A DNA stretch of 64,000 nucleotides, taken from assembly GCA_965223865.1 (NCBI GenBank), contig OZ245020.1, forward strand, positions 320,001 through 384,000, written 5' to 3'. Position numbers and translations under genes: made by a program. This DNA comes from Nitrosarchaeum sp. GTDB taxonomy: Archaea > Thermoproteota > Nitrososphaeria > Nitrososphaerales > Nitrosopumilaceae. Under the pieces are notes generated by a model, which was not told the DNA's origin, ran no database searches, and saw nothing but the letters and a program-made list of their open reading frames with translations. Positions within the stretch are counted from its first letter, which is position 1. Every line of letters starts with the position of its first letter. Positions 32,723 to 47,900 of this stretch are shown here, piece after piece.

Positions 32723-32799
32723 TAATGAAAAACTCCATATGGTGTTATAAATTCAATTTGGATTTCTAATTTTATCAAATCTTGTATTAGAATAGTTTT

Positions 32800-32889
32800 T
32801 TAAAAAATAAAGGCTAAGATTGCAATGCAATTACTTTCTCAGATTTGATATGAGTGCTCTGATTTAATTAGAATTTATAAAGAAAATTA
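32800..32889. repeat. Left arm of exact 90-bp inverted repeat (partner 33820-33909)
   Basis: TTAAAAAATAAAGGCTAAGATTGCAATGC...TTTATAAAGAAAATTA is the exact reverse complement of 33820-33909. Confidence 0.95.
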
Positions 32890-32895
32890 GGTTTA

Positions 32896-33021
32896 ATGAT
32901 TCAGGTAAAAAATGACTCTTTTGATATATGTCAGTGTGATGTTTGTGAAAATTGTAATTTTGACACTGAAAAGAACAAGAAATTATGTCAAGCTTGTATC
33001 AAGAATATTCATAAATTCTAG
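32896..33021 (+). CDS. Cys-rich micro-protein (41 aa; CxCxxCxxC...CxxC...H), absent from the ORF track
   Basis: Manual translation MIQVKNDSFDICQCDVCENCNFDTEKNKKLCQACIKNIHKF. Confidence 0.6.
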   Translation: MIQVKNDSFDICQCDVCENCNFDTEKNKKLCQACIKNIHKF

Positions 33022-33605
33022 TAATCATGTTCGCTAAAATCTGATCCTAATGAGATTGTTGCAATGATAGTACTTTTTGTAGTTTGGAATTTAAGATTTT
33101 TGTCAGGTACAAATTGATGAAATATTTCTTTAAGTAGTTGTTCTGTAAACAATGACCAATTCATTCCTAATTCATGTTGAATAATAAAGTGGTGTAATTC
33201 TCCCTCTGTTCTATGGTCGGATTTCATTCCAGATGCTCTGATATAGTCTTCTAATGTTTCAATACAACGTTTAAGATCATACTGACCTTTCATGAAAAGA
33301 ACAGTATCTTTAATCAGAGGAAGAACTGCTTTGATTATTTCGTTAATATCTGTACCATCCATTTCTTCGCCAAGTGAATCCAAAATTCCTTTTGGAACAG
33401 GAATCATACCAATTTTATCGCCAAAGCGATCCCATTTTACATACTTTTCAAGAATTTGTTTTACCAAAACATTTTGTGAGATATTTTTATGCATTGCTTC
33501 GGTTTCAAGCTCCTCTACAACTTTTGCAGGAAGACGATAAGTAATACTACGGGTCTTTTCTTTTTTTGGCGGATGAGTTTGTCTACTTGTTGGAGCTGAT
33601 TTCAA
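33018..33605 (-). CDS. Ribbon-helix-helix regulator with C-terminal sensor-like domain
   Basis: TRSITYRLPAKVVEELETEAMHKNISQNVLVKQILEKY is an RHH pattern; paralogue of 44666-45187. Confidence 0.75.
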   Translation of the reverse strand: MKSAPTSRQTHPPKKEKTRSITYRLPAKVVEELETEAMHKNISQNVLVKQILEKYVKWDRFGDKIGMIPVPKGILDSLGEEMDGTDINEIIKAVLPLIKDTVLFMKGQYDLKRCIETLEDYIRASGMKSDHRTEGELHHFIIQHELGMNWSLFTEQLLKEIFHQFVPDKNLKFQTTKSTIIATISLGSDFSEHDY

Positions 33606-33819
33606 TATGCTTTATTCCAATAGTCGATATACCTAGTATTAATGTCATATTTTAGTTTAAAAGGAAAAAAGGTAAAAAAACTATTTTTTCTTAAAGAAGA
33701 ATTCGTCTTTTTCTTCTAGATCCTTGTTCTACCTCAGAAATTTACACAAATTAGAACAAATCTACAATGAAAATGAAGAAAAATTTCAAACTTGGATGAA
33801 TATATCAAGATAATAGCCG

Positions 33820-33909
33820 TAATTTTCTTTATAAATTCTAATTAAATCAGAGCACTCATATCAAATCTGAGAAAGTAATTGCATTGCAATCTTAGCCTTT
33901 ATTTTTTAA
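33820..33909. repeat. Right arm of exact 90-bp inverted repeat (partner 32800-32889)
   Basis: Read directly. Confidence 0.95.
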
Positions 33910-33927
33910 TCAGAATAATATCATCCA

Positions 33928-34257
33928 ATGAATGGTAAGATTTTGGTTTTATTGACTGCTGTCGTCTTCACCATGGGTTACTATGCAGAAAATACAGTTG
34001 CATTTGCACAGTATATGGGTAACGTAGGCAGTGGAGGAGAAACCGGAGCATATACCTTAGAAGAAGCACTCGAAATTCAAAGAAGAAGAATTGATGCAGC
34101 AGAAGCAAATCCAGCATCTGGTTCAGGCACACCCTATCTTGATGCAAGTGGTGTAGTTGGTGCATCAGTTATTGCAGGTGCAGTCTTTGGTGGTATTGCA
34201 GCAGCCTTCTTCATTAGAGGAAGATCTGGAAAATACGCAGCAATGGGACGTGGTTAA
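33928..34257 (+). CDS. Small secreted, membrane-anchored protein
   Basis: Signal peptide (VAFA), Gly/Ala-rich C-terminal TM helix, basic tail. Confidence 0.75.
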   Translation: MNGKILVLLTAVVFTMGYYAENTVAFAQYMGNVGSGGETGAYTLEEALEIQRRRIDAAEANPASGSGTPYLDASGVVGASVIAGAVFGGIAAAFFIRGRSGKYAAMGRG

Positions 34258-34320
34258 GATGAATCATTCCCAGAATTTTATAATATATTTAGAAAATGTG
34301 CAAAAAAAGGGAGGTAGAAT

Positions 34321-34530
34321 ATGACATATTGTATTGGTGAATGTAAGAAATACAAAGCAGCAAAGCCAGCTCAAATTGGTAGATATGCAGCAGGACAAAA
34401 GAGATGCAATTACTGTGAAATCTTTGTAGATTATGATGGGATTACTTGTCCATGTTGCAATAGACAATTAAGATGTCTTCCACGTAGCAGAAAAGGTAAA
34501 GAGAAGTATCTAGAACAAATAGTGCTCTAA
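34321..34530 (+). CDS. Small Cys-rich Zn-finger protein
   Basis: CIGEC, CNYC and CPCC motifs. Confidence 0.8.
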   Translation: MTYCIGECKKYKAAKPAQIGRYAAGQKRCNYCEIFVDYDGITCPCCNRQLRCLPRSRKGKEKYLEQIVL

Positions 34531-34545
34531 TAAGATAAAAAGGAA

Positions 34546-35025
34546 TTATTGTACTGATACTGACTTTTTCTTTTGTGTTCTAGTTGGTTTTGCTTTAGGC
34601 AGTGTAATATCTAATACACCATCAGTAAGTTTTGCCTTTACTTTTCCTGACACCACATCTTCAGACATTGGTAATGTTCTGTAGTATGAAATATGACTTC
34701 TCTCCTTTCTGAGAAAGTTTTTTTTCTTTTCTTCAGATTCCTCTTTATGCTCAGCTGATACTTCCAAGGAATTATCAGTTACGTTTAGGTTGATCTCATT
34801 TTTCTTTACTCCAGGAACATCCATTTTTACACGGAATTGGTTGCCTTCATCTATGACATCACAAGATGTTTCTGGCATTTTTGGCATAGATAATGAGGGA
34901 AATGATGAAAATGCTTTCTCCATATCCTTTCTTAGGTTTTCAATTGATCTGTCAATATCTGTCCAGCTAGATGTCCAAAATGTAGTAGGTTTTGATTCCT
35001 TTTTTACCGGTTTTTTTGTTGCCAT
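34546..35025 (-). CDS. Small heat-shock protein (Hsp20/alpha-crystallin)
   Basis: DVPGVKK, ERS...YYRTLPM, AKLTDGVLDITLPK and terminal VSV motif. Confidence 0.93.
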   Translation of the reverse strand: MATKKPVKKESKPTTFWTSSWTDIDRSIENLRKDMEKAFSSFPSLSMPKMPETSCDVIDEGNQFRVKMDVPGVKKNEINLNVTDNSLEVSAEHKEESEEKKKNFLRKERSHISYYRTLPMSEDVVSGKVKAKLTDGVLDITLPKAKPTRTQKKKSVSVQ

Positions 35026-35145
35026 GATAAAAAATTTTTAAAAAATAATTTAAAATGTTAAGATAATTCCCAAAAACTGAAATAAGCAATAATCATGCGT
35101 GAAAATAAAACGTCTATTTATAAGAAAATAATTCTAGGTAATTAT

Positions 35146-35418
35146 ATGGTAATTCCAGTAGATATCCAAGATTATGTTGAAAAACATATCAAATTAATGA
35201 TTTCTCAAACTGAAACTTATCTTCCGTTCATCAAGATGGCATATCCTTACTCCAAAAATTTAGCTGATGGAGTTTACAGTTTAATAGTTGGTAGTGCACT
35301 TTCTGTATTTGTTAATCAGTATGCAATGAGAATGAAAAACCCTACAGCAGATGATTTTTCAGAATTTGGCAAGATTACACTAAAGTATAGAGATCAAGTA
35401 GAACAGTTTTTTACCTAA
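35146..35418 (+). CDS. Hypothetical protein
   Basis: ORF from ATG 35146. Confidence 0.7.
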   Translation: MVIPVDIQDYVEKHIKLMISQTETYLPFIKMAYPYSKNLADGVYSLIVGSALSVFVNQYAMRMKNPTADDFSEFGKITLKYRDQVEQFFT

Positions 35419-35814
35419 TCAATCGATTTTGATTTTTTGGCCGGAGAACTTCTTTGGTATTACAATGTTTAAACGTCCGTTTTCAAATTTTGCAGTAGTT
35501 TTGTTTTTGTTTATGTTTCCTGGAAGAGTAATTGTTTTTTTAAAATACTGAAATTTTGTTTGTACACCTAATTTTTCTTCAGAATATATTTCTCTTAGTT
35601 TTGCTTCTACACTTATTGATCTTTCATCAAAAGTTATTTTGATATCTTTTTTGTTTACTAGAGGAAGATCAAATTCTAGTAACCAATGAGTTCCAAATTC
35701 TCTTAGGCAAGAAAGTGGAGAAAGGATTTGACTATCCATATCATCACTAAATAACGAAGTCATTGAGGGCTGAATTATTCTGATTTCAAATTTATCATTA
35801 TTTATTTTGGTCAT
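35419..35814 (-). CDS. Small heat-shock protein (Hsp20 family)
   Basis: DLPLVNKKDI, AKFENGRLNIVIPK and terminal IKI motif. Confidence 0.88.
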   Translation of the reverse strand: MTKINNDKFEIRIIQPSMTSLFSDDMDSQILSPLSCLREFGTHWLLEFDLPLVNKKDIKITFDERSISVEAKLREIYSEEKLGVQTKFQYFKKTITLPGNINKNKTTAKFENGRLNIVIPKKFSGQKIKID

Positions 35815-35818
35815 TTAA

Positions 35819-36544
35819 TCACCGATAAATTTGAGGAGCTCTTGTAGGTTGTTTTTCCTGTTTCTGTTGTTGTAAAGCACGAATAGTTTCTTCCATTAGA
35901 TTTCTATGTTGTATTCTTAGTCGTTCCATTTTCTTTTGAATATCAGTTGTATCTACTTTGATATTCAAAACTTTGGCCAGGGTTGTTATGGCTAAAATTG
36001 ATGCTTCTGGATCTGGAAAGAAAGGATGACATTCTGCATATAAAATTAATGCAGGAATTTTTGATTTTCTAAAAACTGAAATTATTGCAGCGTCAGTACC
36101 AAAAATTGAACCTGCAAGAAATTTTGAGATTTGATTTATGTATAGAAGTTCTTCTAGTGATTTGTGTGTAACTAATCCATAGATTTTAGGTGATTTTGGA
36201 CTTTGGTTTATTGTTTCCATTCCACTTACTATAATGATTTTTTGAATATCGTTATTTTTGCAGTATTGTAAAATTGATTCAGAAAAATCATACGCACGAT
36301 ATGGATCAAATGGAAGGTCAGATATTATTACAAAAATATTATTTTTTTTGTAAATCCGAATTGGTGGTAAAATTTCTCCATCTTCTACAAATAAGGTAGG
36401 AGGTAAATCAGGATGTTCAATTTCTCCAATTTGTTTCATACCTAAGTAATGGATTAGATAGGATATTGAAAAGGTTCCAACTAGACCATTACTTGGAAAA
36501 CCTACTAACAAAATATTTTCTTTAGATAATTTACTAATTTTCAT
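35819..36544 (-). CDS. Proteasome assembly chaperone family protein (PAC2/PbaA-like)
   Basis: VGFPSNGLVG, PPIRIY and PDPEAS motifs; C-terminal IYR resembles an HbYX motif. Confidence 0.85.
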   Translation of the reverse strand: MKISKLSKENILLVGFPSNGLVGTFSISYLIHYLGMKQIGEIEHPDLPPTLFVEDGEILPPIRIYKKNNIFVIISDLPFDPYRAYDFSESILQYCKNNDIQKIIIVSGMETINQSPKSPKIYGLVTHKSLEELLYINQISKFLAGSIFGTDAAIISVFRKSKIPALILYAECHPFFPDPEASILAITTLAKVLNIKVDTTDIQKKMERLRIQHRNLMEETIRALQQQKQEKQPTRAPQIYR

Positions 36545-36546
36545 AA

Positions 36547-37713
36547 CTAGAATATTGGCAATCCAATTTTTCTAACACTGGTTTTAGAACGCCTTTTTGC
36601 ACGTTTAGATAATGTCTTTAATAGCTTCTGGCTTAGATCTTCTAAAACTTCACTGAGATCAAATCCAATTGAACTGTAAATAAGAGGGGCACGGTGAGGT
36701 GTTGTAATCATTATCGATACTTCATACTTTCCTTCTTTTTTATTTCCAGTTCTTTGTTGTTTGATTGAAACTCTAGCCTCTTGAATTTCAGAATATACCT
36801 TTTGTAATCTTTTAAGAGTATTCTCAAATTTTTTGCTAATCAAATTTGTATTTTTTTGGTCTTCTGGTAATCCAACAATGTATAATGGAATTGGAGTTTC
36901 TATTTTTGATGCGAGTAATCCAAGAATATCTCTAAAGGTAATAATTCCATGAAGATTTTCCCATAAATTAACTAAACAACAAGAAGTGTTTGTTTTAAGC
37001 ATTGAACTTACAATTTTATTAAGATCATCATTTGGCGTACATTGAGGAATTCTTGTACTTCCAATATTTCCTATTCTAGATTCTAGTTTGCGAATAGTTT
37101 TGCTTCCCATCGATTTTCGTCCTTGACTTTCTTGTGGTAATATGGATTCTAAAAGATGTGTAGACGTAAGAACTTGTTTAATTTTTCCTTGATTCATGAC
37201 AGGTAAATGATCCAATTTTTTTGAGGTCATAATCCTTCTTGCATTGCTAAGTGATTCTTCTGAAGAGATTATTATTGGATTCTGGGTGTATATCAAATTG
37301 GCTTTTATCCATTTGTTATCTTTAGTTGAAAGTAGCTTCAAAATTCGTTTAGCGGTAACTACTCCAACGATTTTATTTTTTTGAACTACAGGTACTTCAC
37401 GAATTCTATAATGAGCAATAATATTTGCAGCCTTTTGAATTGAGTTATTTGGAGTTACAAAAGGAATTGGATAAAGAAATGGTTCTACTTTCATGGTTGT
37501 AATACTTTTGGCGTTAAGTAGTGCTCTGGTGTTCGTGGAAAGTGTTGATTTTCCATTAAGACAAAAAACGTCATATGAGTTATTTTTTGAAATTTTACTA
37601 ATAACACTTGAAAGAGTATCTGTTGGTTTAATTATAGTTGCTTTAGAAATTAGAGATTTTACTTTAGTAAATTGAATATCTTGGAGATGCTCATAAATTG
37701 TATCACTAATCAT
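36547..37713 (-). CDS. 4xCBS protein with C-terminal HPF/RaiA-like domain (Hib-like ribosome hibernation factor candidate)
   Basis: Four CBS repeats, then YIVGL-helix-EARVSIK-YEVSIMI-LIYSSIGFDLSEVLEDL-basic helix, matching the HPF beta-alpha-beta-beta-beta-alpha order. Confidence 0.7.
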   Translation of the reverse strand: MISDTIYEHLQDIQFTKVKSLISKATIIKPTDTLSSVISKISKNNSYDVFCLNGKSTLSTNTRALLNAKSITTMKVEPFLYPIPFVTPNNSIQKAANIIAHYRIREVPVVQKNKIVGVVTAKRILKLLSTKDNKWIKANLIYTQNPIIISSEESLSNARRIMTSKKLDHLPVMNQGKIKQVLTSTHLLESILPQESQGRKSMGSKTIRKLESRIGNIGSTRIPQCTPNDDLNKIVSSMLKTNTSCCLVNLWENLHGIITFRDILGLLASKIETPIPLYIVGLPEDQKNTNLISKKFENTLKRLQKVYSEIQEARVSIKQQRTGNKKEGKYEVSIMITTPHRAPLIYSSIGFDLSEVLEDLSQKLLKTLSKRAKRRSKTSVRKIGLPIF

Positions 37714-37801
37714 TTTGTTCTATCTAATTGGATTTCTTCCTAGTTTTAAATTAAAAGAAAATGCCAGATTTTCAGAGTTGATTTTCATGGATGATATTTG
37801 A

Positions 37802-38701
37802 ATGGATATATTTAACGAATTAAATCAACATGGTGTATTGCAATTAAAAAATGCAGATCTTAATCAGATCATAATCAAGAGGACTATAACTGTAAATCCC
37901 GATACCATACTTTTGGATGCAAGAGATATCTTACTTCGACATAATTTGAAAAGATTGGTAGTTATTGACTCAAAGAATAAACCAGTTGGAATTATCACTG
38001 AAAAAGATATTGCCAAGACAATTTATGCACTTGGAGACAAACCAATCAAATCTGTGAAAGTTTCAGGGTTTATGTCAAAGAAATTAATCACAATTAAAAA
38101 GACAGATACAATTTATGATTGCGCAAAATTGATGGAAAAAAATCATATCAGTTCCATTGTAGTTCTTGGTAAAAATGGTGTTTTAGAAGGCCTAATAACA
38201 AAAACAGACCTGGCCTCAATTTTTTTAACTCATGCTATAGCACCGCTCAAAGTTTCAAAAATAATGACTAGAAAAGTGATTACAGCAATGCCTGGTGATT
38301 CTCTGCTTTATGTTGAAAGTCTGTTAATTCATAACAGGATAGCAAGAATTGTTGTTCAAAGGAACAGAATTCCTGTTGGTGTGATAACTTTTAGAGATTT
38401 TGTTCCAGCAAAGTTACCATATTGGATTACACAGTCAGCAGATCCTAAGGAAGTTCAAGAATACAAAATGAGAAGTAATTTTGATGGTTTTCGTGTAAAT
38501 CAAATGAGTCATCTGTTACATTTCAAAGCAGTAGATATAATGTCTTCAAATCCAATTACAGTAGATGCAGATGAGGATGTTGGAGTAGCTGTTTTGTTAA
38601 TGATAAGAAATAACATTAGTGGCATTCCTGTTGTAAAAAAATCAAAACTTGTTGGAATAATTACCAAAACAGACATTGTAAAAGCTATTGCAGAGGCTTA
38701 A
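37802..38701 (+). CDS. 4xCBS domain protein
   Basis: VGIITEKDI, GLITKTDL, GVITFRDF and VGIITKTDI repeats. Confidence 0.9.
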   Translation: MDIFNELNQHGVLQLKNADLNQIIIKRTITVNPDTILLDARDILLRHNLKRLVVIDSKNKPVGIITEKDIAKTIYALGDKPIKSVKVSGFMSKKLITIKKTDTIYDCAKLMEKNHISSIVVLGKNGVLEGLITKTDLASIFLTHAIAPLKVSKIMTRKVITAMPGDSLLYVESLLIHNRIARIVVQRNRIPVGVITFRDFVPAKLPYWITQSADPKEVQEYKMRSNFDGFRVNQMSHLLHFKAVDIMSSNPITVDADEDVGVAVLLMIRNNISGIPVVKKSKLVGIITKTDIVKAIAEA

Positions 38702-38703
38702 GA

Positions 38704-39114
38704 CTATTTTACAATAAGAATAGAACAAGGTGAATTGTTTGCGAGTTTATTTGAAGTGCTTCCAAGAAAGAATCGTGCTGTAGCACCAAGTCCTTTATTT
38801 CCTACAATAATCAAATTACATTGTTCTTTTTTTGCAAGTTTGATAATCTCGTTTGTAACATTTCCTTCCTTCATAACTATTTTAGAATCAACACCTCTTC
38901 GAATGGCGGTTTCTTTTGCTTTAACCAAAACTTTGTTTCCAAATTTTCTTAAAATTTCAAGATAGTCTTTTCTATCTAATAGATTAATAGGAATTGATTT
39001 TTCTACAACATACAAAATTATTAGTCTAGCCCGGTAATTTTTTGATATATCACATGCGTGTAATAGAGCTTTATCTGAATATTTTGAGCCATCAAGTGGA
39101 ACCAAAATATTCAT
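38704..39114 (-). CDS. Universal stress protein
   Basis: ILVPLDGS and IVGNKG...LGSTS motifs. Confidence 0.92.
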   Translation of the reverse strand: MNILVPLDGSKYSDKALLHACDISKNYRARLIILYVVEKSIPINLLDRKDYLEILRKFGNKVLVKAKETAIRRGVDSKIVMKEGNVTNEIIKLAKKEQCNLIIVGNKGLGATARFFLGSTSNKLANNSPCSILIVK

Positions 39115-39295
39115 GTAAAATGATTTTCTCATGCAAAAATTTACAGATTATGAATATTTAACTAAACTCTTTGAAATTTATGTTATTAGACAGATATCAA
39201 TTAATTTTATAATAAAATAATGAAATTAAAAGATGATTATTATTATTGATAATCTTAATTCGGTATTAAATCGTAAAAATTGAGGCTAAAAGCAA

Positions 39296-39724
39296 ATGAT
39301 CAGAAAAAACATAAAAAAAATTCTAGTCCCACTTGATGGCTCTAAAAATTCCATGAGAGGATTAAATGAGGCAATTTATCTTGCAAGACAATGTTATGCT
39401 ACTATTACAGGATTGTATGTAATCCCAATTTATCCAAGAAATTTTGCTGATGCAATTATACCATATCAAATTCATCTTACAAAATCAGCTAAGACATTTA
39501 TGAATAATGCAAAAAATATCTGTGCAAAAAAAGGAATAATGTTTAAATCAAAAATAATTTTTGGTAGTCCAATTGTAGAAATTAATGATATGGTAAATAC
39601 CAAAAAATTTGATCTTATTGTAATAGGTTCAAGGGGTCAAAGTGGATTAAAGGAACTATTTTTGGGTAGTGTGGCAAAAGCTATAGTTCATAAATCAAAA
39701 GTTCCTGTGTTAGTAATAAAATAG
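39296..39724 (+). CDS. Universal stress protein
   Basis: ILVPLDGS and IGSRG...FLGSVA motifs. Confidence 0.93.
   Translation: MIRKNIKKILVPLDGSKNSMRGLNEAIYLARQCYATITGLYVIPIYPRNFADAIIPYQIHLTKSAKTFMNNAKNICAKKGIMFKSKIIFGSPIVEINDMVNTKKFDLIVIGSRGQSGLKELFLGSVAKAIVHKSKVPVLVIK
39308..39423. repeat. Left arm of exact 116-bp inverted repeat (5' coding part of a USP gene; partner 41255-41370)
   Basis: AACATAAAAAAAATTCTAGTCCC...GGATTGTATGTAAT is identical to the reverse complement of 41255-41370. Confidence 0.95.
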
Positions 39725-39732
39725 GTGTAAAG

Positions 39733-40200
39733 ATGTTTTCTAAAATGTTAACAAGAATTCTTGTACCATATGATGGTTCAAAATATTCTGAAAAAGCATT
39801 ATCAAGGGCAATGGAACTATCACATAATTTGGATTCTCAAGTGTTTTTGTTTTCAGTAATCAATGTAGATTACATTTCACCTCCTGGAATACTTGGACTA
39901 GCCAGAGCAAAATCTGAAAAAGAGTCCATGAAAAAATGGGAAAAAACAGTCAAAGATGATTCCGAAAAAATGCTAAAATCTGCTGCAAAGAAATGTGAAG
40001 AAAAAGGAATTGTAGTATCTTATAGTATTGGTAAAGGCAATATTGCAAATGAAATACTAAATTTTTCAAAAAAGAAAAAAATTTCATTAATAGTTATTGG
40101 AAGCCAAGGTCTTCATGGAATAAAAAAATTCAAGACTCTAGGAAGTGTAAGTAGAAGAGTTTCAGAGCATGCGATTTGTCCTGTACTTATAGTTAGATAG
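39733..40200 (+). CDS. Universal stress protein
   Basis: ILVPYDGS and IGSQG...LGSVS motifs. Confidence 0.92.
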   Translation: MFSKMLTRILVPYDGSKYSEKALSRAMELSHNLDSQVFLFSVINVDYISPPGILGLARAKSEKESMKKWEKTVKDDSEKMLKSAAKKCEEKGIVVSYSIGKGNIANEILNFSKKKKISLIVIGSQGLHGIKKFKTLGSVSRRVSEHAICPVLIVR

Positions 40201-40202
40201 AA

Positions 40203-40433
40203 TTAAGCTAATTCGCCTAAAAAGTGTACAATACCTTGATCTACTAGAACAGTTCTATCTTTAGGAACATGAAATAGTTTTTTTGAATTATTTGTTGATT
40301 GAACAATAAGTTTTGAAAAAGGATCATTGAGGGATTTGTACAAAATTCCTTGTTCACCAATAGATTGTGACCAATGGGTGCCTTGAATAAATGAAATAGT
40401 TTGAAATTTAATTATTTGATAAGAATAAACCAT
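40203..40433 (-). CDS. Small hypothetical protein
   Basis: 76-aa ORF co-oriented with and 6 bp behind the CBS gene. Confidence 0.65.
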   Translation of the reverse strand: MVYSYQIIKFQTISFIQGTHWSQSIGEQGILYKSLNDPFSKLIVQSTNNSKKLFHVPKDRTVLVDQGIVHFLGELA

Positions 40434-40439
40434 GGTAAA

Positions 40440-40880
40440 TCATTTGTTTTGTTTCATGCGAGTAATAATTTGATCAGAGATATTTCTCATCTCTGAATCA
40501 GAACCAAGGCTGCAAATTTTCACTAAATCTGTTGTAGTTATTATTCCAATTATTTTGTTATCTTGTTTTACAGGTAGCTTGTGAATGTTTTTGGTTTTCA
40601 TAATTTGTGCGGCTTCCCATACTGTTTGATCTGAATCAATTTCAATAAGTGGAGAAGTCATTACTTTTTCTATGGAAGAAGTTAATGATATTTCTTTGGA
40701 GGCTATTTTTTTTACAAAATCTCTTTCTGTCAAGATTCCAATAGGATGACTGTCTTTAGTTGCAATTATGCATCCAATATTTTTTTCATCCATCATCTTT
40801 GCTGCTTCACTTATTGTAGTTGATATATCTAAGGTAGCTAAATTATCGATCATGGCATCTTTTACAGATGTGTATCCCAT
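40440..40880 (-). CDS. CBS domain pair protein
   Basis: IGILTERDF and IGIITTTDL motifs. Confidence 0.9.
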   Translation of the reverse strand: MGYTSVKDAMIDNLATLDISTTISEAAKMMDEKNIGCIIATKDSHPIGILTERDFVKKIASKEISLTSSIEKVMTSPLIEIDSDQTVWEAAQIMKTKNIHKLPVKQDNKIIGIITTTDLVKICSLGSDSEMRNISDQIITRMKQNK

Positions 40881-40953
40881 ACAATTAATTTAAAATTTAT
40901 TCTAATAAAGGAGATCCTTATTTTCATGAAAAGAACTTAAATTTCTAAAATCA

Positions 40954-41373
40954 TTATTTTACTATTAAAATAGGGATTGTTGATTTGTGCAAAACATAAT
41001 TTGATGTGCTTCCAAGAAAAGTTTCTTTTATTGAACTCATTCCTCTTGAACCTATTACAATAAGATCAAATTTTTTGGTATTTGCATAATTGACAATTTT
41101 GACTCCTTCATCTCCGTAAATCACATCATCAAAAAAATCAATTCCATTTTGAGCTGAACATTTTTTTGCCTTTGACATAAATTTTGAAGCATTTTCAAGA
41201 AGATGTTTCTCTATGTAAGAGATTTGTGAGCTAGTCTTCGGTTTAGATAATGGAATTACATACAATCCTGTAATAGTAGCATAACATTGTCTTGCAAGAT
41301 AAATTGCCTCATTTAATCCTCTCATGGAATTTTTAGAGCCATCAAGTGGGACTAGAATTTTTTTTATGTTCAT
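40954..41373 (-). CDS. Universal stress protein
   Basis: ILVPLDGS and IGSRG...FLGSTS motifs. Confidence 0.93.
   Translation of the reverse strand: MNIKKILVPLDGSKNSMRGLNEAIYLARQCYATITGLYVIPLSKPKTSSQISYIEKHLLENASKFMSKAKKCSAQNGIDFFDDVIYGDEGVKIVNYANTKKFDLIVIGSRGMSSIKETFLGSTSNYVLHKSTIPILIVK
41255..41370. repeat. Right arm of exact 116-bp inverted repeat (partner 39308-39423)
   Basis: Read directly. Confidence 0.95.
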
Positions 41374-41483
41374 AATCGGTTTGATGCTTGACCAAATTTA
41401 AGGTGTTTCTATAGCATTATCGTTTTTGATTTTCAGTAGTGAGATTATGCAAACATCATAATATATGGAAAATAGGAAGTTAA

Positions 41484-41954
41484 TTGAAAATGGTCAAGGA
41501 TGCAAAGGAAATTACAGTGGGAGACGTAATGACAAAGTCTGTTATTGCAGTTGATGCGTCAATTACAGTAAATGAGGCAGCAAAAATGATGGAGGATTCA
41601 AAAGTTGGCTCAGTTATAGTTATGGAGAACAATAAGCCTTTAGGAATAGTTACAGATAGAGATTTTGCAGTTAAAGTTGCAGCTCATGCATATCAGATCT
41701 CAACTCCAGTAAAGAGGATTATGTCAACGCCATTAATCGCAATAAATCCAGATGAGACAGTATGGATGATTTCTGATATAATGTATACAAGGGGGGTAAG
41801 AAAATTGCCTGTGATTGAGAATGATCAAGTGGTAGGAATAGTTACTGCTACAGATCTTGTAAATCAACTTGCGATATCAACTGAAGAAGATCTGCAAAAA
41901 ATGTTCCATGAATCAGTAATCAAAGTATACAAACAATATAGTCCATACAATTAG
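41484..41954 (+). CDS. CBS domain pair protein
   Basis: LGIVTDRDF and VGIVTATDL motifs. Confidence 0.9.
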   Translation: MKMVKDAKEITVGDVMTKSVIAVDASITVNEAAKMMEDSKVGSVIVMENNKPLGIVTDRDFAVKVAAHAYQISTPVKRIMSTPLIAINPDETVWMISDIMYTRGVRKLPVIENDQVVGIVTATDLVNQLAISTEEDLQKMFHESVIKVYKQYSPYN

Positions 41955-42335
41955 TCATCCATTAACAATAGCATTCATCAATGATTTTCCACCAATTAGG
42001 GCTCCAATAGATAATCCAATATTTGTTAAAAGATTCACTGCTAATGCAAAATAATGATGGTTATCTAAGAGATTACTTGAATCTAGAGCAAATGAAGACA
42101 TCGTAGTAAGTGAACCACAAAATCCAATTGCTGCAAACAACGAATATCGGCCATCAAGATTCCAATGTTCGGACAAGATTACAAACATTCCAAGTATAAA
42201 TGCCCCAAGAACATTAACAATCAGAACATTTAGCGGTAATGTATTGAAAATGATTGGTGTTTCTGTTATTTTATATCTTAGAAAAGCTCCAAGAACAGAT
42301 CCGCCTGCCAGAAATACAAATTCTAAACCTTTCAT
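41955..42335 (-). CDS. crcB: Fluoride efflux channel CrcB/Fluc
   Basis: GGSVLGAFLRY, NVLGAFILG and GFCGSLTTMSSF motifs. Confidence 0.93.
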   Translation of the reverse strand: MKGLEFVFLAGGSVLGAFLRYKITETPIIFNTLPLNVLIVNVLGAFILGMFVILSEHWNLDGRYSLFAAIGFCGSLTTMSSFALDSSNLLDNHHYFALAVNLLTNIGLSIGALIGGKSLMNAIVNG

Positions 42336-42362
42336 TGTCTACCTTTATTCTTTTCATTGTGG

Positions 42363-42413
42363 GTAGATATTATTAGTGTCATTTAACACGGTTCAGGCTT
42401 TCATATCAAGGCT
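42363..42413 (-). promoter_or_regulatory. Candidate variant fluoride (crcB) riboswitch
   Basis: Minus strand AGCCTT-GATAT-GAAAGCCT-GAACC-GTGTT-AAAT-GACAC-TAATA-ATATC-TAC follows the fluoride aptamer layout, 27 nt upstream of the crcB start. Confidence 0.6.
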
Positions 42414-42493
42414 AATGTCATTCAACTAAGTTTCAAATTATGGTTATCCATCTAGTCATGAACATTTTTCTAAAAATATTTTATGAGAGATGC

Positions 42494-43234
42494 TTATCTG
42501 CAATCTAATACCAATTCATGTACAGATTTTTGTTCAATCTCTACTACATGTTGCTGACCAAACAAACTTAATCCATCAAATTCTAAAGTTTTGACATCAC
42601 TTGGAATAACAAATGGAATTGTCATGTAGTCACCTTTTATCATGATTTGTCCTGCTAGTCTTCCATCAAGCTCAAGATTTCCTGGAGGCATCATAATAAT
42701 TTCAGATGTGTTTGTAGCAATTTCAAGTGGCAAGTCTACAAACAGTGTGATATCCTCAAATCGTTCATCAAGATTGACTAACGGTGACAATACTGGAATA
42801 TCTTCACATCCATAGTTTGTTACAGTCAGCTCAGCAAAGACAAAAGACGAGGCAATGACTAAACCACCTATGGCAACAGCAATTGCGATTGAAGTACCTA
42901 TGACAGTGGAAGCAGGCAAGCCTACTGCAGGTAAGATAGCATTAGCTGCCTTAATCTCTAAACTTAAAATTTTAGAGGCAGCTTTTATTCCTCGGAAGGT
43001 TTTATCTGTTAAGTTGATGGAATCTTTTAATTTGAGATATACGTCTCTTGGCAAATCGTTTTTATAATTATCTAAAATTATTTCAAGATCTTTTACCTTT
43101 TCGTACCATTCTTCTGCATTTTCAATTTTATTATTGAACCTTTCAAATTTTCTTAAAAAGGATGCCATTTCTTTTCTTGCTTTTCTCTGTCTTTCTTTTT
43201 TATTTGAAAAAGGAAAAACACTAGATGACATCAC
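42494..43234 (-). CDS. Hypothetical single-pass membrane protein (helical N-domain, beta-rich C-domain with two Cys)
   Basis: 246-aa ORF with a central TM helix. Confidence 0.7.
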   Translation of the reverse strand: MMSSSVFPFSNKKERQRKARKEMASFLRKFERFNNKIENAEEWYEKVKDLEIILDNYKNDLPRDVYLKLKDSINLTDKTFRGIKAASKILSLEIKAANAILPAVGLPASTVIGTSIAIAVAIGGLVIASSFVFAELTVTNYGCEDIPVLSPLVNLDERFEDITLFVDLPLEIATNTSEIIMMPPGNLELDGRLAGQIMIKGDYMTIPFVIPSDVKTLEFDGLSLFGQQHVVEIEQKSVHELVLDCR

Positions 43235-43390
43235 TATTATTTTCCTAGCAAATAGGATAAGATCTGGTTACCTTGAATTTGAAATAATAAGCTGATTTGT
43301 TAAATAAGAATAATTAAGGTGAGATTCTCATTTTACAAGTTTCAAATTATAGTTACCTGATCAGCCATAATTTGAGAATTAATTACTCAT

Positions 43391-43885
43391 CTAATCATCC
43401 CCTGTTATTACATGTAGGATGATTAACAGAACTAGTAGAATAACCAGACCAAACTGTCCATGTAGTAACCTGTTGAAAACTTTGGTGTTTCTGGATGAGG
43501 TATATCTCAGTAAAATTCCACTTATCATCAAAACTGTCATAGTAATTGCAAGTGATAATGAGATTGAATTTAGTTCACTTACTAGAAGTAAGCCATGAGT
43601 CATTCCTGCAAAGTATCCAATTGAATTAAGAATTATGTGAAAGTTTAGAACTGGTTTGTAAAATTGAACTGCCTGCCTTGCCATCTGGAGCGATTGACCT
43701 CCTGCACGTACAGCATATTTTCTCCATTTGTTAAACAAGATAAATGGTAAATTTGCAATAACACCTGCTCCAATTGCCACCCATCCCAAACTTTCTATTG
43801 CATCTTCTGCGTCATCATCATCTGCAAAAGCTGGTACTGGTGCTAAAAATAATAGAAAAATGATTGGAATGATCTTTGTATTCAT
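43391..43885 (-). CDS. Membrane protein with four TM histidines (possible di-heme cytochrome b)
   Basis: FHIIL..MTHG and LLHG..ILHV pairs in TM helices; GGTGAT RBS before ATG 43885. Confidence 0.65.
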   Translation of the reverse strand: MNTKIIPIIFLLFLAPVPAFADDDDAEDAIESLGWVAIGAGVIANLPFILFNKWRKYAVRAGGQSLQMARQAVQFYKPVLNFHIILNSIGYFAGMTHGLLLVSELNSISLSLAITMTVLMISGILLRYTSSRNTKVFNRLLHGQFGLVILLVLLIILHVITGDD

Positions 43886-43889
43886 AAAA

Positions 43890-44204
43890 TCACCTTGCTG
43901 CTGGGATTTTTGGCCTTCTAGTCTTGTAGATTTTAAATCCAGTATAGGCAACAGATCCTACAATTACTGCAATTGTTCCATAAAGGATTGCATCAGAGAT
44001 TCCTCCCCCTAGTGCTAGTTCTTCGTCATCGTCATGTTCCCTTTCTCGCTCTCTTTCCATATCACCGAATCCTCTTTGTTCGTGTTCTCTTTCATCTTCG
44101 TATTCTTCCCATTCATCTTCATCTGCAAAAGCTACTTCCACACTTGAGACAGTCAAGACAAGTATTGCACCGAGAACAAGTACAAAGATTGATTTTTGTT
44201 TCAT
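43890..44204 (-). CDS. Secreted acidic (E/D/R/H-rich) peptide with C-terminal TM anchor
   Basis: Signal peptide identical to that of 47497-47748; start at ATG 44204. Confidence 0.75.
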   Translation of the reverse strand: MKQKSIFVLVLGAILVLTVSSVEVAFADEDEWEEYEDEREHEQRGFGDMEREREREHDDDEELALGGGISDAILYGTIAVIVGSVAYTGFKIYKTRRPKIPAAR

Positions 44205-44236
44205 GAGTATAGTATGTGTGATTTTAGATATAATCA
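44125..44236. repeat. Left arm of exact 112-bp inverted repeat (TATA, start and signal peptide; partner 47465-47576)
   Basis: Reverse complement equals TGATTATATCTAAAATCACAC...GTAGCTTTTGC at 47465-47576. Confidence 0.95.
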
Positions 44237-44263
44237 GCAAGTATACATTGCAATCAGCTGCAA
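44227..44263 (-). promoter_or_regulatory. Promoter with TGCA-N6-TGCA site and TTATATC TATA box (copy 1)
   Basis: Minus strand TTGCAGCTGATTGCAATGTATACTTGCTGATTATATC. Confidence 0.55.
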
Positions 44264-44288
44264 TTAACAAATTCATGATAGAAGGTGC

Positions 44289-44311
44289 TTGCAAATAATT
44301 GCAGTATAAAC
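44289..44311 (+). promoter_or_regulatory. TGCA-N6-TGCA site (copy 2)
   Basis: TTGCAAATAATTGCAGTATAAAC, identical to 47438-47460. Confidence 0.6.
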
Positions 44312-44355
44312 ATCTCTTTCTTATGCAATTTTCTCATATTAAATTTTGAGAATAC

Positions 44356-44655
44356 ATGAGTGCAGTACAACCAAAAAAACAAAAATCAAGCACAAAATCG
44401 CTTGTTATTGTTGGGGGTATTATTGCAGCTGTTGCAATCTCACTTCTTGTATACCTAATGTGGTATACAGCAGGTGAAGAAGTAGTTGAGGTTGTCAAAG
44501 TGGTCGCAGTAACTGGACAGGGATGTGTGGTCGAAACATTTGATGGTTATGCATTTACTATTGAGCAATGTAGTGCAGAACCAGGAGAGGTTATTTCTAC
44601 ACCTATTGATCAAAAAGTCAAAGAACGAGCTCTGTTAATGAACCCAACATCTTAA
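44356..44655 (+). CDS. Small membrane-anchored hypothetical protein (two Cys, beta-rich)
   Basis: N-terminal TM helix followed by VKVVAVTGQGCVVET...C. Confidence 0.7.
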   Translation: MSAVQPKKQKSSTKSLVIVGGIIAAVAISLLVYLMWYTAGEEVVEVVKVVAVTGQGCVVETFDGYAFTIEQCSAEPGEVISTPIDQKVKERALLMNPTS

Positions 44656-44665
44656 TTTTTTAATT

Positions 44666-45187
44666 TTAAAATTTTAGTGTAACTGAATTATCAGTTATTG
44701 TAACAGTACTATCCTTTTCTAACGAAGATTGTACAATAGCTTCTAAGAATGCTTTTAAGAATATTGAACCTTTTTTGCCAAAGTCATGATGAATACTTAC
44801 ATTACTTGTTCCATCGTCTACTTGCATGTCACACATCCCATAACCACATCGCTCAAAGTACATCTTGATAAATTCTGAAATGCTATCTGAAGTTAGCTCC
44901 TTCCATTTGAACAAAATAAAGTCTTTTGGCTCTTTGGATCCTATTGATTTTGCAAAGTTTATGATGTTTTTTTCATCAAGGGAATTTAACAGATCCTTAA
45001 AGGAGCCCTTACTCATTTCAACCATGCCAAACTTCTTCATAAACTGATCAAACTCTACATGATCACCAAAAATCTGGTTTGCCAAAGTGTTCATACTAAT
45101 GCGTTTTTCTTCAGCTTCTTTTCTTAGACCTTTTTCATATTCCTCATCAATCCTAAATGTAATCGTTGAAGTCTTTTTGGCCTTCAT
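44666..45187 (-). CDS. Ribbon-helix-helix regulator with C-terminal sensor-like domain
   Basis: TSTITFRIDEEYEKGLRKEAEEKRISMNTLANQI RHH pattern; Cys pair CGYGMC; divergent from the rhodanese operon. Confidence 0.75.
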   Translation of the reverse strand: MKAKKTSTITFRIDEEYEKGLRKEAEEKRISMNTLANQIFGDHVEFDQFMKKFGMVEMSKGSFKDLLNSLDEKNIINFAKSIGSKEPKDFILFKWKELTSDSISEFIKMYFERCGYGMCDMQVDDGTSNVSIHHDFGKKGSIFLKAFLEAIVQSSLEKDSTVTITDNSVTLKF

Positions 45188-45201
45188 ATTCTAAAGATGA
45201 G

Positions 45202-45237
45202 TGCATCTAATTGCAGTATAAACTTCTTGATTATATC
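45202..45237 (+). promoter_or_regulatory. Promoter with TGCA-N6-TGCA site and TTATATC TATA box (copy 3)
   Basis: TGCATCTAATTGCAGTATAAACTTCTTGATTATATC; TATA about 28 nt before ATG 45259. Confidence 0.6.
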
Positions 45238-45258
45238 AAATAAATCCAAATACTAGGC

Positions 45259-46659
45259 ATGAGTCAAAGTACAAAAAACTATGAAATATCAGCTAAGCAG
45301 CTAAACGAAGAATTATCACAACAAAAACCATTACTCGTTTTTGATTTAAGGCCAAAAGACCAGTTCGAAAAGGACCACATCAAAGGTTCGGTTCATGCAG
45401 TATGTGATACTCAGGCAAAAGAGAAGATCATGCCCAAAATACCAAAAAATGCCAAGATTGTGCTTATTTCTGAGCCTGAAAAAATTGCTAAAGAGACTGC
45501 ACAAATGATGAATTCATTTGGTTTGGATGCCCATTATTTGCAAGGAGGATTCCGTTCTTGGGAGGGTAAAACAGAGCAGGGTAAAACAGGAAAAATCATT
45601 ACAGCGCAGCAATTAGAGGCTCAATTAGATAGGGTATTTCTTTTAGATGTCAGAAGTGAAGACGAATTTTCAGAATATCAAATTCCTGGAAGCATAAACA
45701 TTCCCTTAGATAACCTCTTTGATGCAAAGACGCTAGAAAAGATTCCAAAAGACAAACCTGTAGTAACAATATGTCCACATGGAAACCGAGCAATGGTTGC
45801 AAGTTTTGCATTGACAAGAGGAGGAATTAATTCACATACGCTTGCAGGAGGACTAGCTGAATGGAATCAGATTCTCAAACCAATAACCGTAACACACAAA
45901 CCAAGAGTAATCCAAGTTCAAAAAGTTGGTAAAGGCTGTCTATCTCATATTGTAGAATCTGATGGAGAAGCTATTGTAATTGATCCGCTTTACCCATTTG
46001 AAAAATATATTGAAATTGCAAAAGAACTAGGATTTACAATAACTAAAGTATTTGATACACACCAGCATGCAGATCATGTATCTGCAGCTCGAAAGCTTGC
46101 AAAGGAAGCAAATACACAACTCTACCTCTCAAAATATGAAGGATATGATTATGATGCAACCTTTGTTGGAGATAATGACACTATATCTTTTGGAAAATCA
46201 ATGCTTAGAGTAATTCATACTCCAGGACATACACCAGGGAGTCTTAGCTTTGTTGTTGATGAAAAATATATTTTCACAGGAGATATATTGTTTGTAGAAT
46301 CTATTGGAAGGCCAGATCTAAGAGATAAGGCTGAAGAATTTACAGAACAGCTTTACAATACACTTCATGAAAAACTTCTTGTTCTACCTAATGAAACATT
46401 GGTGTTTCCAACTCATCATAGTGAGAATGTAGATTCGATTGATGGCGCATATTATTCCACTATAGGAAATTCAAGAAAACTTCCCTGGCTTGATATCCCA
46501 AAACAAGAATTTGTCAAAAAGGTAATAGCAATTACACTTCCAAGACCCATGAACTATCGTAAGATAATTGCTGTAAACAAGGGAGAGTTAGAATTGGTGC
46601 AGTATGAGATTCCTGATTTGGAGATTGGTCCAAACAGGTGTGCAGTAGATGTTAGTTGA
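45259..46659 (+). CDS. Tandem rhodanese plus metallo-beta-lactamase (persulfide dioxygenase/CstB-like) fusion
   Basis: Two rhodanese domains (HIKGS, IPGS, active loop CPHGNR), then THQHADHVS, HTPGHT, GD...GRPDL and terminal PNRC. Confidence 0.88.
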   Translation: MSQSTKNYEISAKQLNEELSQQKPLLVFDLRPKDQFEKDHIKGSVHAVCDTQAKEKIMPKIPKNAKIVLISEPEKIAKETAQMMNSFGLDAHYLQGGFRSWEGKTEQGKTGKIITAQQLEAQLDRVFLLDVRSEDEFSEYQIPGSINIPLDNLFDAKTLEKIPKDKPVVTICPHGNRAMVASFALTRGGINSHTLAGGLAEWNQILKPITVTHKPRVIQVQKVGKGCLSHIVESDGEAIVIDPLYPFEKYIEIAKELGFTITKVFDTHQHADHVSAARKLAKEANTQLYLSKYEGYDYDATFVGDNDTISFGKSMLRVIHTPGHTPGSLSFVVDEKYIFTGDILFVESIGRPDLRDKAEEFTEQLYNTLHEKLLVLPNETLVFPTHHSENVDSIDGAYYSTIGNSRKLPWLDIPKQEFVKKVIAITLPRPMNYRKIIAVNKGELELVQYEIPDLEIGPNRCAVDVS

Positions 46660-47437
46660 GGTACTAGATCCCCTCATCATTTTTCTTTCAATCATTTCAG
46701 GGACGATAGTGGGGTTTAGTCTAGGTTTGGTTGGTGGAGGTGGATCTGTTCTAGCAGTGCCTCTATTGTTGTATGTTGTAGGCGTAAAAGACACACACAT
46801 AGCCATAGGCACATCCGCGCTTGCTGTTGGAATTGTTGCTGGAATTAGTCTACTAAACTACAAAAAATTAGGAAGAATCAGAATTAGAAAAGGCCTCATG
46901 TTTGCCATACCTGGAATTGCAGGAACATTATTGGGTGCCCAGCTAGGATTATGGACTCCTGCTGAGCATCTCTTGATCTTCTTTGCTGGATTCATGATAG
47001 TAGTGGGTCTTTTGATGCTAAGGAAAAAGAGTGCAACACATGAGGTATCAAATGAAAACATGAGTTTAATTTTGCTAAAAAGAAATGTTTCCTTTTCAGG
47101 TTTCTTGGTTGGAGTACTTGCAGGATATTTTGGGATAGGTGGAGGTTTTTTGATTGTTCCAACAATAATGTATTCAGGAGGACTCAGTATCATACATGCA
47201 ATAGGTACATCACTGGTTTCTGTAAGCTCATTTGGTATTACCACTGCTGCAAGATACCTAGTTGCAGGACAAGTTGACATTCTATTGGCTGCATTGCTAA
47301 TTGTTGGAGGAATAATAGGTGGATATTTTGGATCAAAGACATCTGAAAAAATTCCAAAAGAATTCTTAGTCAAAATATTTGCAGTATTACTATTTACAGT
47401 AGCAGTTTACATAATGATTCAAACTATCATATCATAA
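46649..47437 (+). CDS. TauE/SafE family sulfite exporter
   Basis: GLVGGGGSVLAVP, AIGTS and GIGGGFLIVP repeats; overlaps the rhodanese gene. Confidence 0.92.
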   Translation: MLVEVLDPLIIFLSIISGTIVGFSLGLVGGGGSVLAVPLLLYVVGVKDTHIAIGTSALAVGIVAGISLLNYKKLGRIRIRKGLMFAIPGIAGTLLGAQLGLWTPAEHLLIFFAGFMIVVGLLMLRKKSATHEVSNENMSLILLKRNVSFSGFLVGVLAGYFGIGGGFLIVPTIMYSGGLSIIHAIGTSLVSVSSFGITTAARYLVAGQVDILLAALLIVGGIIGGYFGSKTSEKIPKEFLVKIFAVLLFTVAVYIMIQTIIS

Positions 47438-47474
47438 TTGCAAATAATTGCAGTATAAACTTCTTGATTATATC
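47438..47474 (+). promoter_or_regulatory. Promoter with TGCA-N6-TGCA site and TTATATC TATA box (copy 4)
   Basis: TTGCAAATAATTGCAGTATAAACTTCTTGATTATATC; TATA about 29 nt before ATG 47497. Confidence 0.6.
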
Positions 47475-47576
47475 TAAAATCACACATACTATACTCATGA
47501 AACAAAAATCAATCTTTGTACTTGTTCTCGGTGCAATACTTGTCTTGACTGTCTCAAGTGTGGAAGTAGCTTTTGC
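47465..47576. repeat. Right arm of exact 112-bp inverted repeat (partner 44125-44236)
   Basis: Read directly. Confidence 0.95.
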
Positions 47577-47748
47577 CGATTCTAACAGTTATGATGACGA
47601 TAAAGATGATGATCATGAAAAAGAATATGATAGAAATGATGACAGAGATGATCATGATGATGATCATGATAATGATCATGATAAAGATGACAGAGATAAC
47701 GACAAAGACGATTCAAACGACAAGTCAGAAAAAGAGAGAAAAAGCTAG
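47497..47748 (+). CDS. Secreted Asp/His-rich low-complexity peptide
   Basis: Signal peptide followed by DDDKDDDHEKEYDRNDDRDDHDDDHDNDHDKDD. Confidence 0.7.
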   Translation: MKQKSIFVLVLGAILVLTVSSVEVAFADSNSYDDDKDDDHEKEYDRNDDRDDHDDDHDNDHDKDDRDNDKDDSNDKSEKERKS

Positions 47749-47756
47749 AAATCAAA

Positions 47757-47788
47757 TTGTCTGAAAAGACAAAATCATTTTTTATTTA
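47757..47788 (+). terminator. Hairpin TTGTCT-GAAA-AGACAA followed by a T-rich tract
   Basis: Directly after the 47748 stop codon. Confidence 0.4.
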
Positions 47789-47900
47789 ATTCAACAAGAA
47801 ATTATGAATTTTTGAACTTACAGAGCCTGAAATTACATAGGGAATAACTGGTATCTCTACATATCTCAATACCAAACTAGGAAAAATTTTGATTATAGAA

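Follow-up and report, generated by a model that had tools for sequence, protein, structure and literature searches.

The 64,000-nucleotide (nt) window analyzed here, C1:320001-384000 (contig OZ245020.1) in a 2.01 Mb, 34% G+C assembly of Nitrosarchaeum sp. (genome G000), carries a stretch with four universal stress protein (USP) genes, two ribbon-helix-helix (RHH) regulators with operator words of their own and two acidic secreted proteins. We report on the inverted repeats formed by the starts of these paralogous genes. A repeat search of the whole window identified four inverted pairs, all within 32.8-47.6 kb: pair 1 (32800-32889 and 33820-33909; 90 nt, 100% identity), pair 2 (39308-39427 and 41251-41370; 120 nt, 99%), a match between the 3' parts of the same two genes as pair 2 (39595-39723 and 40955-41083; 129 nt, 73%), and pair 3 (44121-44266 and 47435-47580; 146 nt, 94%). 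An earlier note on this DNA, made from the sequence alone, had described three exact inverted pairs whose arms are promoters or gene 5' ends, whose identity stops abruptly, and which have no counterpart in the flanks. All of this is borne out: the cores of pairs 1, 2 and 3 are letter-perfect over 90, 116 and 112 nt, the bases adjoining each core mismatch on both sides, the flanks hold no further pair, and the arms consist of promoter sequence (pair 1), codons (pair 2) or a promoter with a signal peptide (pair 3).

Repeats of this length are far from what chance provides. With arms at most 10 kb apart, shuffled versions of the window (20 in all) contained exact inverted repeats no longer than 14-17 nt, compared with 116 nt in the real sequence. 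Applying a threshold of at least 50 nt, at least 97% identity and arms at most 10 kb apart to the chromosome left five loci (six matches), three of which are pairs 1-3, and each arm has two copies in the genome and no more. The clustering of the three pairs is non-random. The only further local near-exact inverted repeats in G000 lie at C1:636979-637153 and 640320-640494 (175 nt, 3167 nt apart), where the arms bracket an open reading frame (ORF) that resembles a transposase fragment by eye, and at C1:517188-517325 and 520639-520776, within the repeated C-terminal domains of secreted proteins.

Pair 2 lies entirely within the coding sequence of two convergent genes, USP-A (+ strand, 39296-39724) and USP-B (- strand, 40954-41373), both of which encode full-length Usp domains. 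The left arm (39308-39427, +) covers codons 5-44 of USP-A and the right arm (41251-41370, -) codons 2-41 of USP-B, and the same genes share a second, exact tract of 39 nt further downstream (39595-39633, +; partner at 41045-41083). The interior block (39733-40880) is made up of a third gene of the family, USP-C (39733-40200, +), a 76-amino-acid (aa) ORF (40203-40433, -) and a CBS-pair protein (40440-40880, -). Because the promoters and first codons of USP-A and USP-B lie outside the arms, a flip between the arms would swap the promoters of two operons.

The 2.3 kb unit formed by pair 2 keeps its colinearity in the six other genus genomes, without exception, and in additional Nitrosopumilaceae genera. 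We aligned both USP genes from the 23 genomes with both arms, excluding loci with a single arm or cut by a contig end. In every one of the 23, the two arms of a genome are 90-100% identical to each other (median 97.5%), while arms compared between genomes show a median identity of 83.3% (range 67.5-97.5%). For 42 of 46 arms no sequence lies closer than the paralogue from the same genome (ties included), whereas this is true of 0 of 46 gene remainders, each of which has a closer orthologue in another genome; outside the shared blocks, USP-A and USP-B align at 41-52% identity in the middle of the gene and 56-80% in the tail. A sliding profile places the stretches where paralogues beat orthologues at ~39305-39425 and ~39602-39632, both with steep edges. 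Among genomes, 61 of the 120 arm columns are variable, distributed as 16, 7 and 38 over first, second and third codon positions, and in a six-genome alignment the private synonymous changes of each genome are present in both copies. Pair 2 therefore displays the marks of concerted evolution: paralogues closer than orthologues over a bounded tract, and synonymous changes carried by both copies. Genomes assembled as a single contig look alike in this respect, with within-genome arm identities of 0.992 in G004 and G079 and 0.958 in G005 and G146, so that the collapse of repeats in draft assemblies is not the cause of the pattern. These comparisons indicate that pair 2 reflects an old and recurrent gene conversion confined to a short tract; conversion between paralogues, which the earlier note had listed as an alternative, is thus what the comparative data on this pair show.

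Two divergent genes for acidic proteins carry the arms of pair 3, which take in the proximal promoter and the signal peptide (28 residues) of each. The left arm (44121-44266, -; exact core 44125-44236) belongs to a 103-aa protein (43890-44201) and the right arm (47435-47580, +; exact core 47465-47576) to a His/Asp-rich 83-aa protein (47497-47748). Enclosed between them (44356-47437) is a sulfur-handling module with a 99-aa ORF (44356-44655, +), an RHH regulator of 173 aa, RHH-173 (44666-45187, -), a rhodanese/metallo-beta-lactamase fusion (45259-46659, +) and a TauE/SafE exporter (46649-47437, +). The chromosome has exactly three copies of the word ATTGCAGTATAAAC, all of them in the pair-3 region (44298-44311, on the + strand; 45210-45223; 47447-47460) and each upstream of a gene, and a degenerate copy sits in the left arm. 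This promoter word also precedes a different membrane-protein gene in genome G004 (L019, ~4960-5070), so that the promoter cassette has been reused before unrelated genes.

The stretch borders a variable island. Synteny with four of the five other genus genomes compared here (G001, G003, G005 and G006) ends at ~42421, and beyond this point G004 alone shares rearranged pieces with G000. The segment 44496-47794, with the orthologue of the right arm, is located elsewhere in the G004 chromosome. In the G004 orthologue of the 103-aa gene, the signal-peptide sequence has diverged and the sequence upstream is unrelated. Since the start of this orthologue has diverged while the module in G004 keeps the right-arm orthologue, the 5' end and promoter of the 103-aa gene were overwritten from the 83-aa gene in the G000 lineage, with the right arm as the likely donor copy. 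The rearrangement that placed the sulfur module beside the 103-aa gene could not be reconstructed from G004.

Pair 1 is built differently. Its left arm (32800-32889, no strand assigned) is an intergenic, bidirectional operator-promoter block between a 99-aa gene (-) and a 41-aa Cys-rich ORF (+), and its right arm (33820-33909, likewise unstranded) lies upstream of a 109-aa gene (33928-34257, +) encoding a predicted membrane or secreted protein. In each arm the outer 30 nt comprise the palindrome ATTGCAnTGCAAT (32819-32831 and 33878-33890) followed by a T-rich TATA-like box facing outwards, toward the 99-aa gene (-) at the left and the 109-aa gene (+) at the right; a second TATA-like box, in the inner 60 nt, faces inwards. 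Between the arms are the Cys-rich ORF (+) and RHH-195 (33018-33605, -), a 195-aa protein with an N-terminal RHH-like region. Matches of RHH-195 to CopG_antitoxin and BrnA were weak and below cut-off, and its paralogue is the 173-aa regulator of the pair-3 module (29% identity, E 1e-15). The palindrome adjoins RHH-195 and is a candidate RHH operator: its only two sites in the chromosome are those of the pair-1 arms, and it is kept upstream of the 109-aa gene in 5/5 genus genomes examined and upstream of the 99-aa gene in 4/5. We infer that the RHH proteins would bind these proposed operator words, and the arms of pairs 1 and 3 both appear to be copies of an operator-promoter used locally. Because each pair-1 arm holds a whole two-way promoter, flipping the segment between them would re-pair nothing.

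The relatives suggest how pair 1 came about. The left arm is found at the same place in G004 (97% identity) and G005 (90%). At the site of the right arm, G004 carries the outer 30 nt only, beside a fragment of ~700 nt that by eye belongs to an ammonium-transporter gene, and both of its 30-nt copies share one G004-specific base; in G005, G003 and G006 only the palindrome and the T-rich box remain there. Of the right arm in G000, only the outer 30 nt, with operator and TATA-like box, are ancestral. In G005 and G003, ~2.4 kb separate the RHH gene from the 109-aa gene and contain what by eye are an ammonium-transporter gene and a P-II-like gene, the latter label having been given to the G005 ORF (the stretches read by eye are L014 4700-6975 in G005 and L012 ~11383-12083 in G004). 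Adjoining the right arm in G000 is a 70-nt remnant of a P-II-like gene, also recognized by eye (33723-33792, +). The 90-nt identity of pair 1 is a product of the G000 lineage: it grew out of an operator-promoter of 30 nt that was shared ancestrally, together with a deletion and some inversion step. We found no path of one or two simple inversions from a G005-like ancestor to the present arrangement, in which both the remnant and a 60-nt copy are inverted.

The 109-aa gene has itself been rewritten. A copy 334 kb away, at C1:688689-688993, matches its body (33952-34256) at 99% identity, and the gene shows 91% identity to its syntenic G004 orthologue and 96% to the distant G004 copy. This looks like a conversion from the distant paralogue, starting 43 nt to the right of the pair-1 right arm. 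With G004 as an outgroup, a polarity of overwriting is seen in three places: at the pair-3 left arm, at the pair-1 right arm and in the 109-aa gene. On these comparisons pairs 1 and 3 are young and lineage-specific.

Purifying selection on a common function at the level of DNA, RNA or protein (operator or promoter, 5' mRNA, N-terminal peptide) could in principle keep the arms alike with no copying at all, and it would suit both the conserved, regulatory-looking motifs of pairs 1 and 3 (ATTGCAnTGCAAT with its T-rich box, and ATTGCAGTATAAAC) and the location of the pair-2 arm at the beginning of the USP domain. We judge it very improbable as the sole cause. The changing columns of the pair-2 arms fall mostly at third positions and the same change appears in both copies; at pair 1, 30 nt are conserved in relatives against 90 nt identical in G000; and a different 5' end serves the orthologue of the 103-aa gene in G004.

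The earlier note had also raised homogenization of short repeats by the assembler. Five sequencing runs contain the stretch in the form of k=31 contigs, and four of them were compared with the window. In three of these four, contigs with zero differences stop or start exactly 30 nt inside the arm edges (33849 and 47547 in X11, 41341 in X12, and 44207 in X12 and X15), a pattern that fits true repeats with two continuations and hence speaks against homogenization; with the contigs breaking at the arms, the orientation within the population is not readable from them. Runs X11, X13 and X15 also hold, over 31000-49000, a G004-like strain at comparable or higher depth, which accounts for loose ends at 33725, 47431 and 47480 and for variant letters. 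An artefact in which the arms were homogenized or the segments mis-oriented would draw on the difficulty that repeats of 90-120 nt pose to short-read assemblers and on two contigs of the same assembly that are probably by-products of it: C2 (3969 nt), almost wholly self-complementary, and C4 (11096 nt), a tandem array with a unit of ~2584 nt. Faced with the contig breaks inside the arms and with the recurrence of the pair-2 pattern in 23 independently assembled genomes, some of them single-contig, this explanation is hardly credible.

Machinery for moving or inverting DNA was searched for both locally and genome-wide. No recombinase, transposase or integrase family was found among 20 ORFs tested with Pfam over 32423-48446. 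In the genome as a whole, tyrosine-recombinase (PF00589) matches occur only at C1:860764, 865741, 866048, 1627454 and 1856771, the nearest ~476 kb from the window, and no serine recombinase (PF00239) was detected. The earlier note's remark that no recombinase lies nearby is therefore confirmed, and the genome-wide search it had proposed returned those five distant tyrosine-type matches and nothing of the serine type. No core is common to the three pairs: words shared from one pair to another reach 7-10 nt at most, pairs 1 and 3 have nothing but GATTGCAATG in common, by its sequence an operator word, and pair 2 shares nothing meaningful with either. Were the arms the terminal inverted repeats of elements resembling insertion sequences or miniature inverted-repeat transposable elements, the compact 1.1 kb unit bracketed by pair 1 and the location elsewhere in G004 of the module that forms the pair-3 segment would be natural. 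We dropped this reading, which has next to no probability in our view: besides the missing transposase and integrase families, no target-site duplication was found at the arm edges, each arm has only two copies in the genome, the arms are functional starts of flanking or internal genes, and relatives with no right arm have the pair-1 left arm in syntenic position.

We consider it likely that the three inverted repeats are opposed starts of paralogous genes homogenized by gene conversion, and not dedicated inversion sites. A number of observations weigh against this interpretation. Conversion alone does not explain why the same sharp tract edges recur at pair 2 across several genera. At pair 1, the 70-nt P-II-like remnant is inverted relative to the intact gene of G005, G003, G001 and G006, which points to an inversion in the history of that locus. 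The remaining ones concern the orientation of pair 2 in other genomes and in metagenomes, and they bear on a different possibility: that this is an invertible cassette working independently of a recombinase, its arms kept identical because flipping by homologous recombination is useful. Each flip would swap the promoters of the USP-A/USP-C and USP-B/CBS operons, giving two expression states and a slow phase variation that needs no invertase.

We surveyed orientation in 401 genomes of the family, of which 47 relatives had a match at E up to 1e-120. In 38 of them a single alignment starts in A-type upstream sequence (at query position 40 or below), crosses the arm and enters body A; G280, G241, G219 and G048 are standard by their B-side junction or gene order; and G225, G230, G227 and G166 are cut by contig ends, hence unclassifiable. 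The comparison of orientation in relatives that the earlier note had recommended thus gives 42 of 43 classifiable relatives in the standard state, including all four single-contig genomes (G004, G005, G079 and G146), and one, G128, in the flipped state. Upstream type agrees with body type in 42 of 46 USP genes of the 23-genome set; the mismatches are both genes of G128, which are swapped, and the diverged B-side upstream regions of G044 and of G048, the latter being standard by gene order and the former lying on a contig without flanks.

In G128, the block between the arms is inverted relative to G114 and G105 of its genus. The flanks are colinear over 7.3 kb and 4.6 kb, the inverted stretch including the arms measures 1.87 kb, and at either arm ~115 nt are covered by both the colinear and the inverted alignment, placing the breakpoints inside the arms. 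The gene order reads CBS2, flank USP, B, CBS, C, A, flank CBS, CrcB. Between its two arms, 3 of 118 positions differ and exact identity extends over at most 69 nt, so that a misjoin by the assembler is less probable; G128 is a draft metagenome-assembled genome (MAG) of ~110 contigs, and no independent contig of its species was among the loci retrieved. Crossovers between pair-2 arms do, then, probably occur, G128 representing one natural flip. A strictly fixed orientation of pair 2, the picture given by seven genus genomes, was given up after G128. The proposal of the earlier note that recombination between arms would flip segments and re-pair upstream regions with gene bodies accordingly stands in part: it describes pair 2 in G128, where promoters are swapped, and fails at pair 1, where nothing would be re-paired.

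Public metagenome contigs scanned with USP-A yielded 36 loci, which we sorted, according to what adjoins bodies A and B, into 24 standard, 6 flipped-type and 6 unclassifiable ones. Flipped-type junctions are therefore present in 6 of 30 classifiable contigs (L083, L088, L091, L097, L102 and L103), and one of these, L083, matches the standard contig L073 at 99.8-99.95% identity to either side of the arm. If flips such as that of L083 are real, both orientations coexist in near-identical populations. Among contigs that cover both arms and both flanks, 8 are standard and 0 flipped. L083 terminates inside the second arm; L088 begins at the arm, has an A-type N-terminus on both genes and arms only ~90% alike; L097 is 99.7% identical to its nearest relative up to the arm and 92.6% past it; and L091, L097 and L102 are 1.0-1.5 kb long. 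We refrained from taking the six contigs as proof of a polymorphism in populations, because of patterns of contig ends and chimeras.

Contigs of species-representative genomes gave 21 loci, of which 20 were examined (L128, an unrelated match at 27%, was excluded); they overlap with the 401-genome survey and are not independent of it. Eighteen are standard, one is unclassifiable and one, L123, carries a hybrid USP gene whose head and middle are A-type and whose tail is B-type (L123 3501-3923 and 4900-5303), followed by the CBS gene, the 76-aa ORF and USP-C in reversed order. A flip between the two copies of the second tract, of 39 nt, would be expected to produce such an arrangement; the contig stops precisely at that repeat. 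Together, the metagenome and MAG contigs hint that flipped molecules exist.

Much in the pair-2 data is thus what an invertible cassette would predict: inverted paralogues with a common 5' repeat and a second, internal one, a 120-nt block kept in 23/23 genomes of several genera, constant tract edges, breakpoints within the arms of G128, the flipped-type fraction of metagenome contigs with the near-identical L083 and L073, and the hybrid gene of L123. Programmed inversions free of a nearby recombinase are described in bacteria by a survey for which archaea were not scanned (PMC9881135), and the 42 archaeal datasets of an inverton survey are all from Euryarchaeota or Crenarchaeota (10.1101/2023.03.11.532203). 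Even so we regard such a cassette as unlikely, given the 42 standard relatives out of 43 with all single-contig genomes among them, the 0 of 8 flipped among fully spanning metagenome contigs, the signs of artefact in L083, L088 and L097 together with the shortness of L091, L097 and L102, the unchanged promoter-gene pairing that a flip of pair 1 would leave, and the absence of pairs 1 and 3 from relatives. The same holds for its widest form, also improbable, in which the USP pair would be a family-wide invertible cassette that needs no recombinase, its 120-nt and 39-nt blocks kept for reversible swaps of promoters and possibly tails, with pairs 1 and 3 as newer instances. A shufflon-like or phase-variable rewiring of a stress regulon, as the earlier note had it, is not supported: pair 2 is standard in 42 of 43 relatives, the three pairs have no core in common, there is no invertase gene at the locus, a flip at pair 1 would re-pair nothing, and pairs 1 and 3 are young.

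Under the conversion explanation, general homologous recombination between inverted paralogous starts, conceivably through a RadA-type pathway, would mostly be resolved as non-crossover gene conversion. At pair 2 the first ~40 codons would have been copied repeatedly between two convergent USP genes whose promoters, middles and tails stay distinct; the conserved start of the USP domain may have remained similar enough to recombine, with the diverged promoters and middles setting the edges of the tract. At pair 1, the ancestral 30-nt operator-promoter would have grown to 90 nt as neighboring transporter-like genes were lost, and at pair 3 the promoter and signal peptide of one acidic protein would have overwritten those of its paralogue when the sulfur-handling module came alongside, both being recent tracts that may have been seeded by shared operator-promoter words. 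Rare resolution as a crossover would flip a segment, as in G128, and the standard order would persist, possibly under selection against the flipped form. The three pairs may cluster here because the stretch is packed with local paralogues in opposite orientation.

Other repeats in the window are of different kinds. A direct repeat of 112 nt and 98% identity (48941-49052 and 51301-51412) spans the 3' end of a cupredoxin-like ORF, so named by eye, and recurs just upstream of an 81-aa ORF, and a tandem array at 21835-21966 consists of ~10 copies of the 12-nt unit GGTGGATTGGTT. No Rfam family matched over 31000-49000 at E up to 0.1.

The closest parallel is provided by tufA and tufB of enterobacteria, inversely oriented duplicates that undergo concerted evolution by gene conversion, a process that needs general homologous recombination and yields rare inversions as a by-product. 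As in that case, the inverted USP paralogues are closer within a genome than orthologues are between genomes, and synonymous changes are found in both copies. In contrast to tufA/tufB, homogenization in the USP pair is limited to a 5' block of 120 nt and an internal one of 39 nt, the genes encode USPs of an archaeon, the edges of the blocks are the same across several genera of Nitrosopumilaceae, and pairs 1 and 3 homogenize promoters and a signal peptide instead of whole genes.

Typical invertons have short repeats and adjoin an invertase gene. The repeats described here differ from them in measuring 90-120 nt and in each being part of a gene start. They are reminiscent of the invertible promoters and intragenic invertons of the inverton survey in that inverted repeats flank a short segment bearing a promoter or part of a gene; its 42 archaeal long-read datasets gave 12 putative invertons (10.1101/2023.03.11.532203). 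Gene-altering programmed inversions and the hsdS 'epigenetic invertons' or shufflons likewise consist of inverted paralogues with 5' and internal coding repeats, in which a flip would exchange promoter, head and tail between two genes (PMC9881135; PMC7672463). Our loci differ from these in having no recombinase nearby, no common core and, at pair 2, one orientation in 42 of 43 relatives; programmed inversions are usually catalyzed by a nearby recombinase, although exceptions exist (PMC9881135). In the open full-text literature, subscription journals lying outside its scope, searches combining Nitrosopumilus with 'gene conversion' and Nitrosarchaeum with 'universal stress protein' returned no title on this locus.

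The explanation we favor is ordinary in kind, and the USP pair is an unusually clean, family-wide example of it. For annotators and assemblers it carries a caution: in Nitrosopumilaceae, exact inverted repeats of 90-120 nt can yield flips that are false as well as flips that are real. Should the invertible cassette be real, no earlier invertible regulatory cassette would be known from ammonia-oxidizing archaea, and both states of pair 2 would coexist in natural populations, as hinted by G128, the six metagenome contigs and L123. Taken together, our results replace the idea of a shufflon that rewires a stress regulon of an ammonia oxidizer with a better-supported exchange of gene starts, by homologous recombination, among local paralogues of small genomes, and the USP pair indicates that intrachromosomal recombination is active and long-lived in Nitrosopumilaceae.

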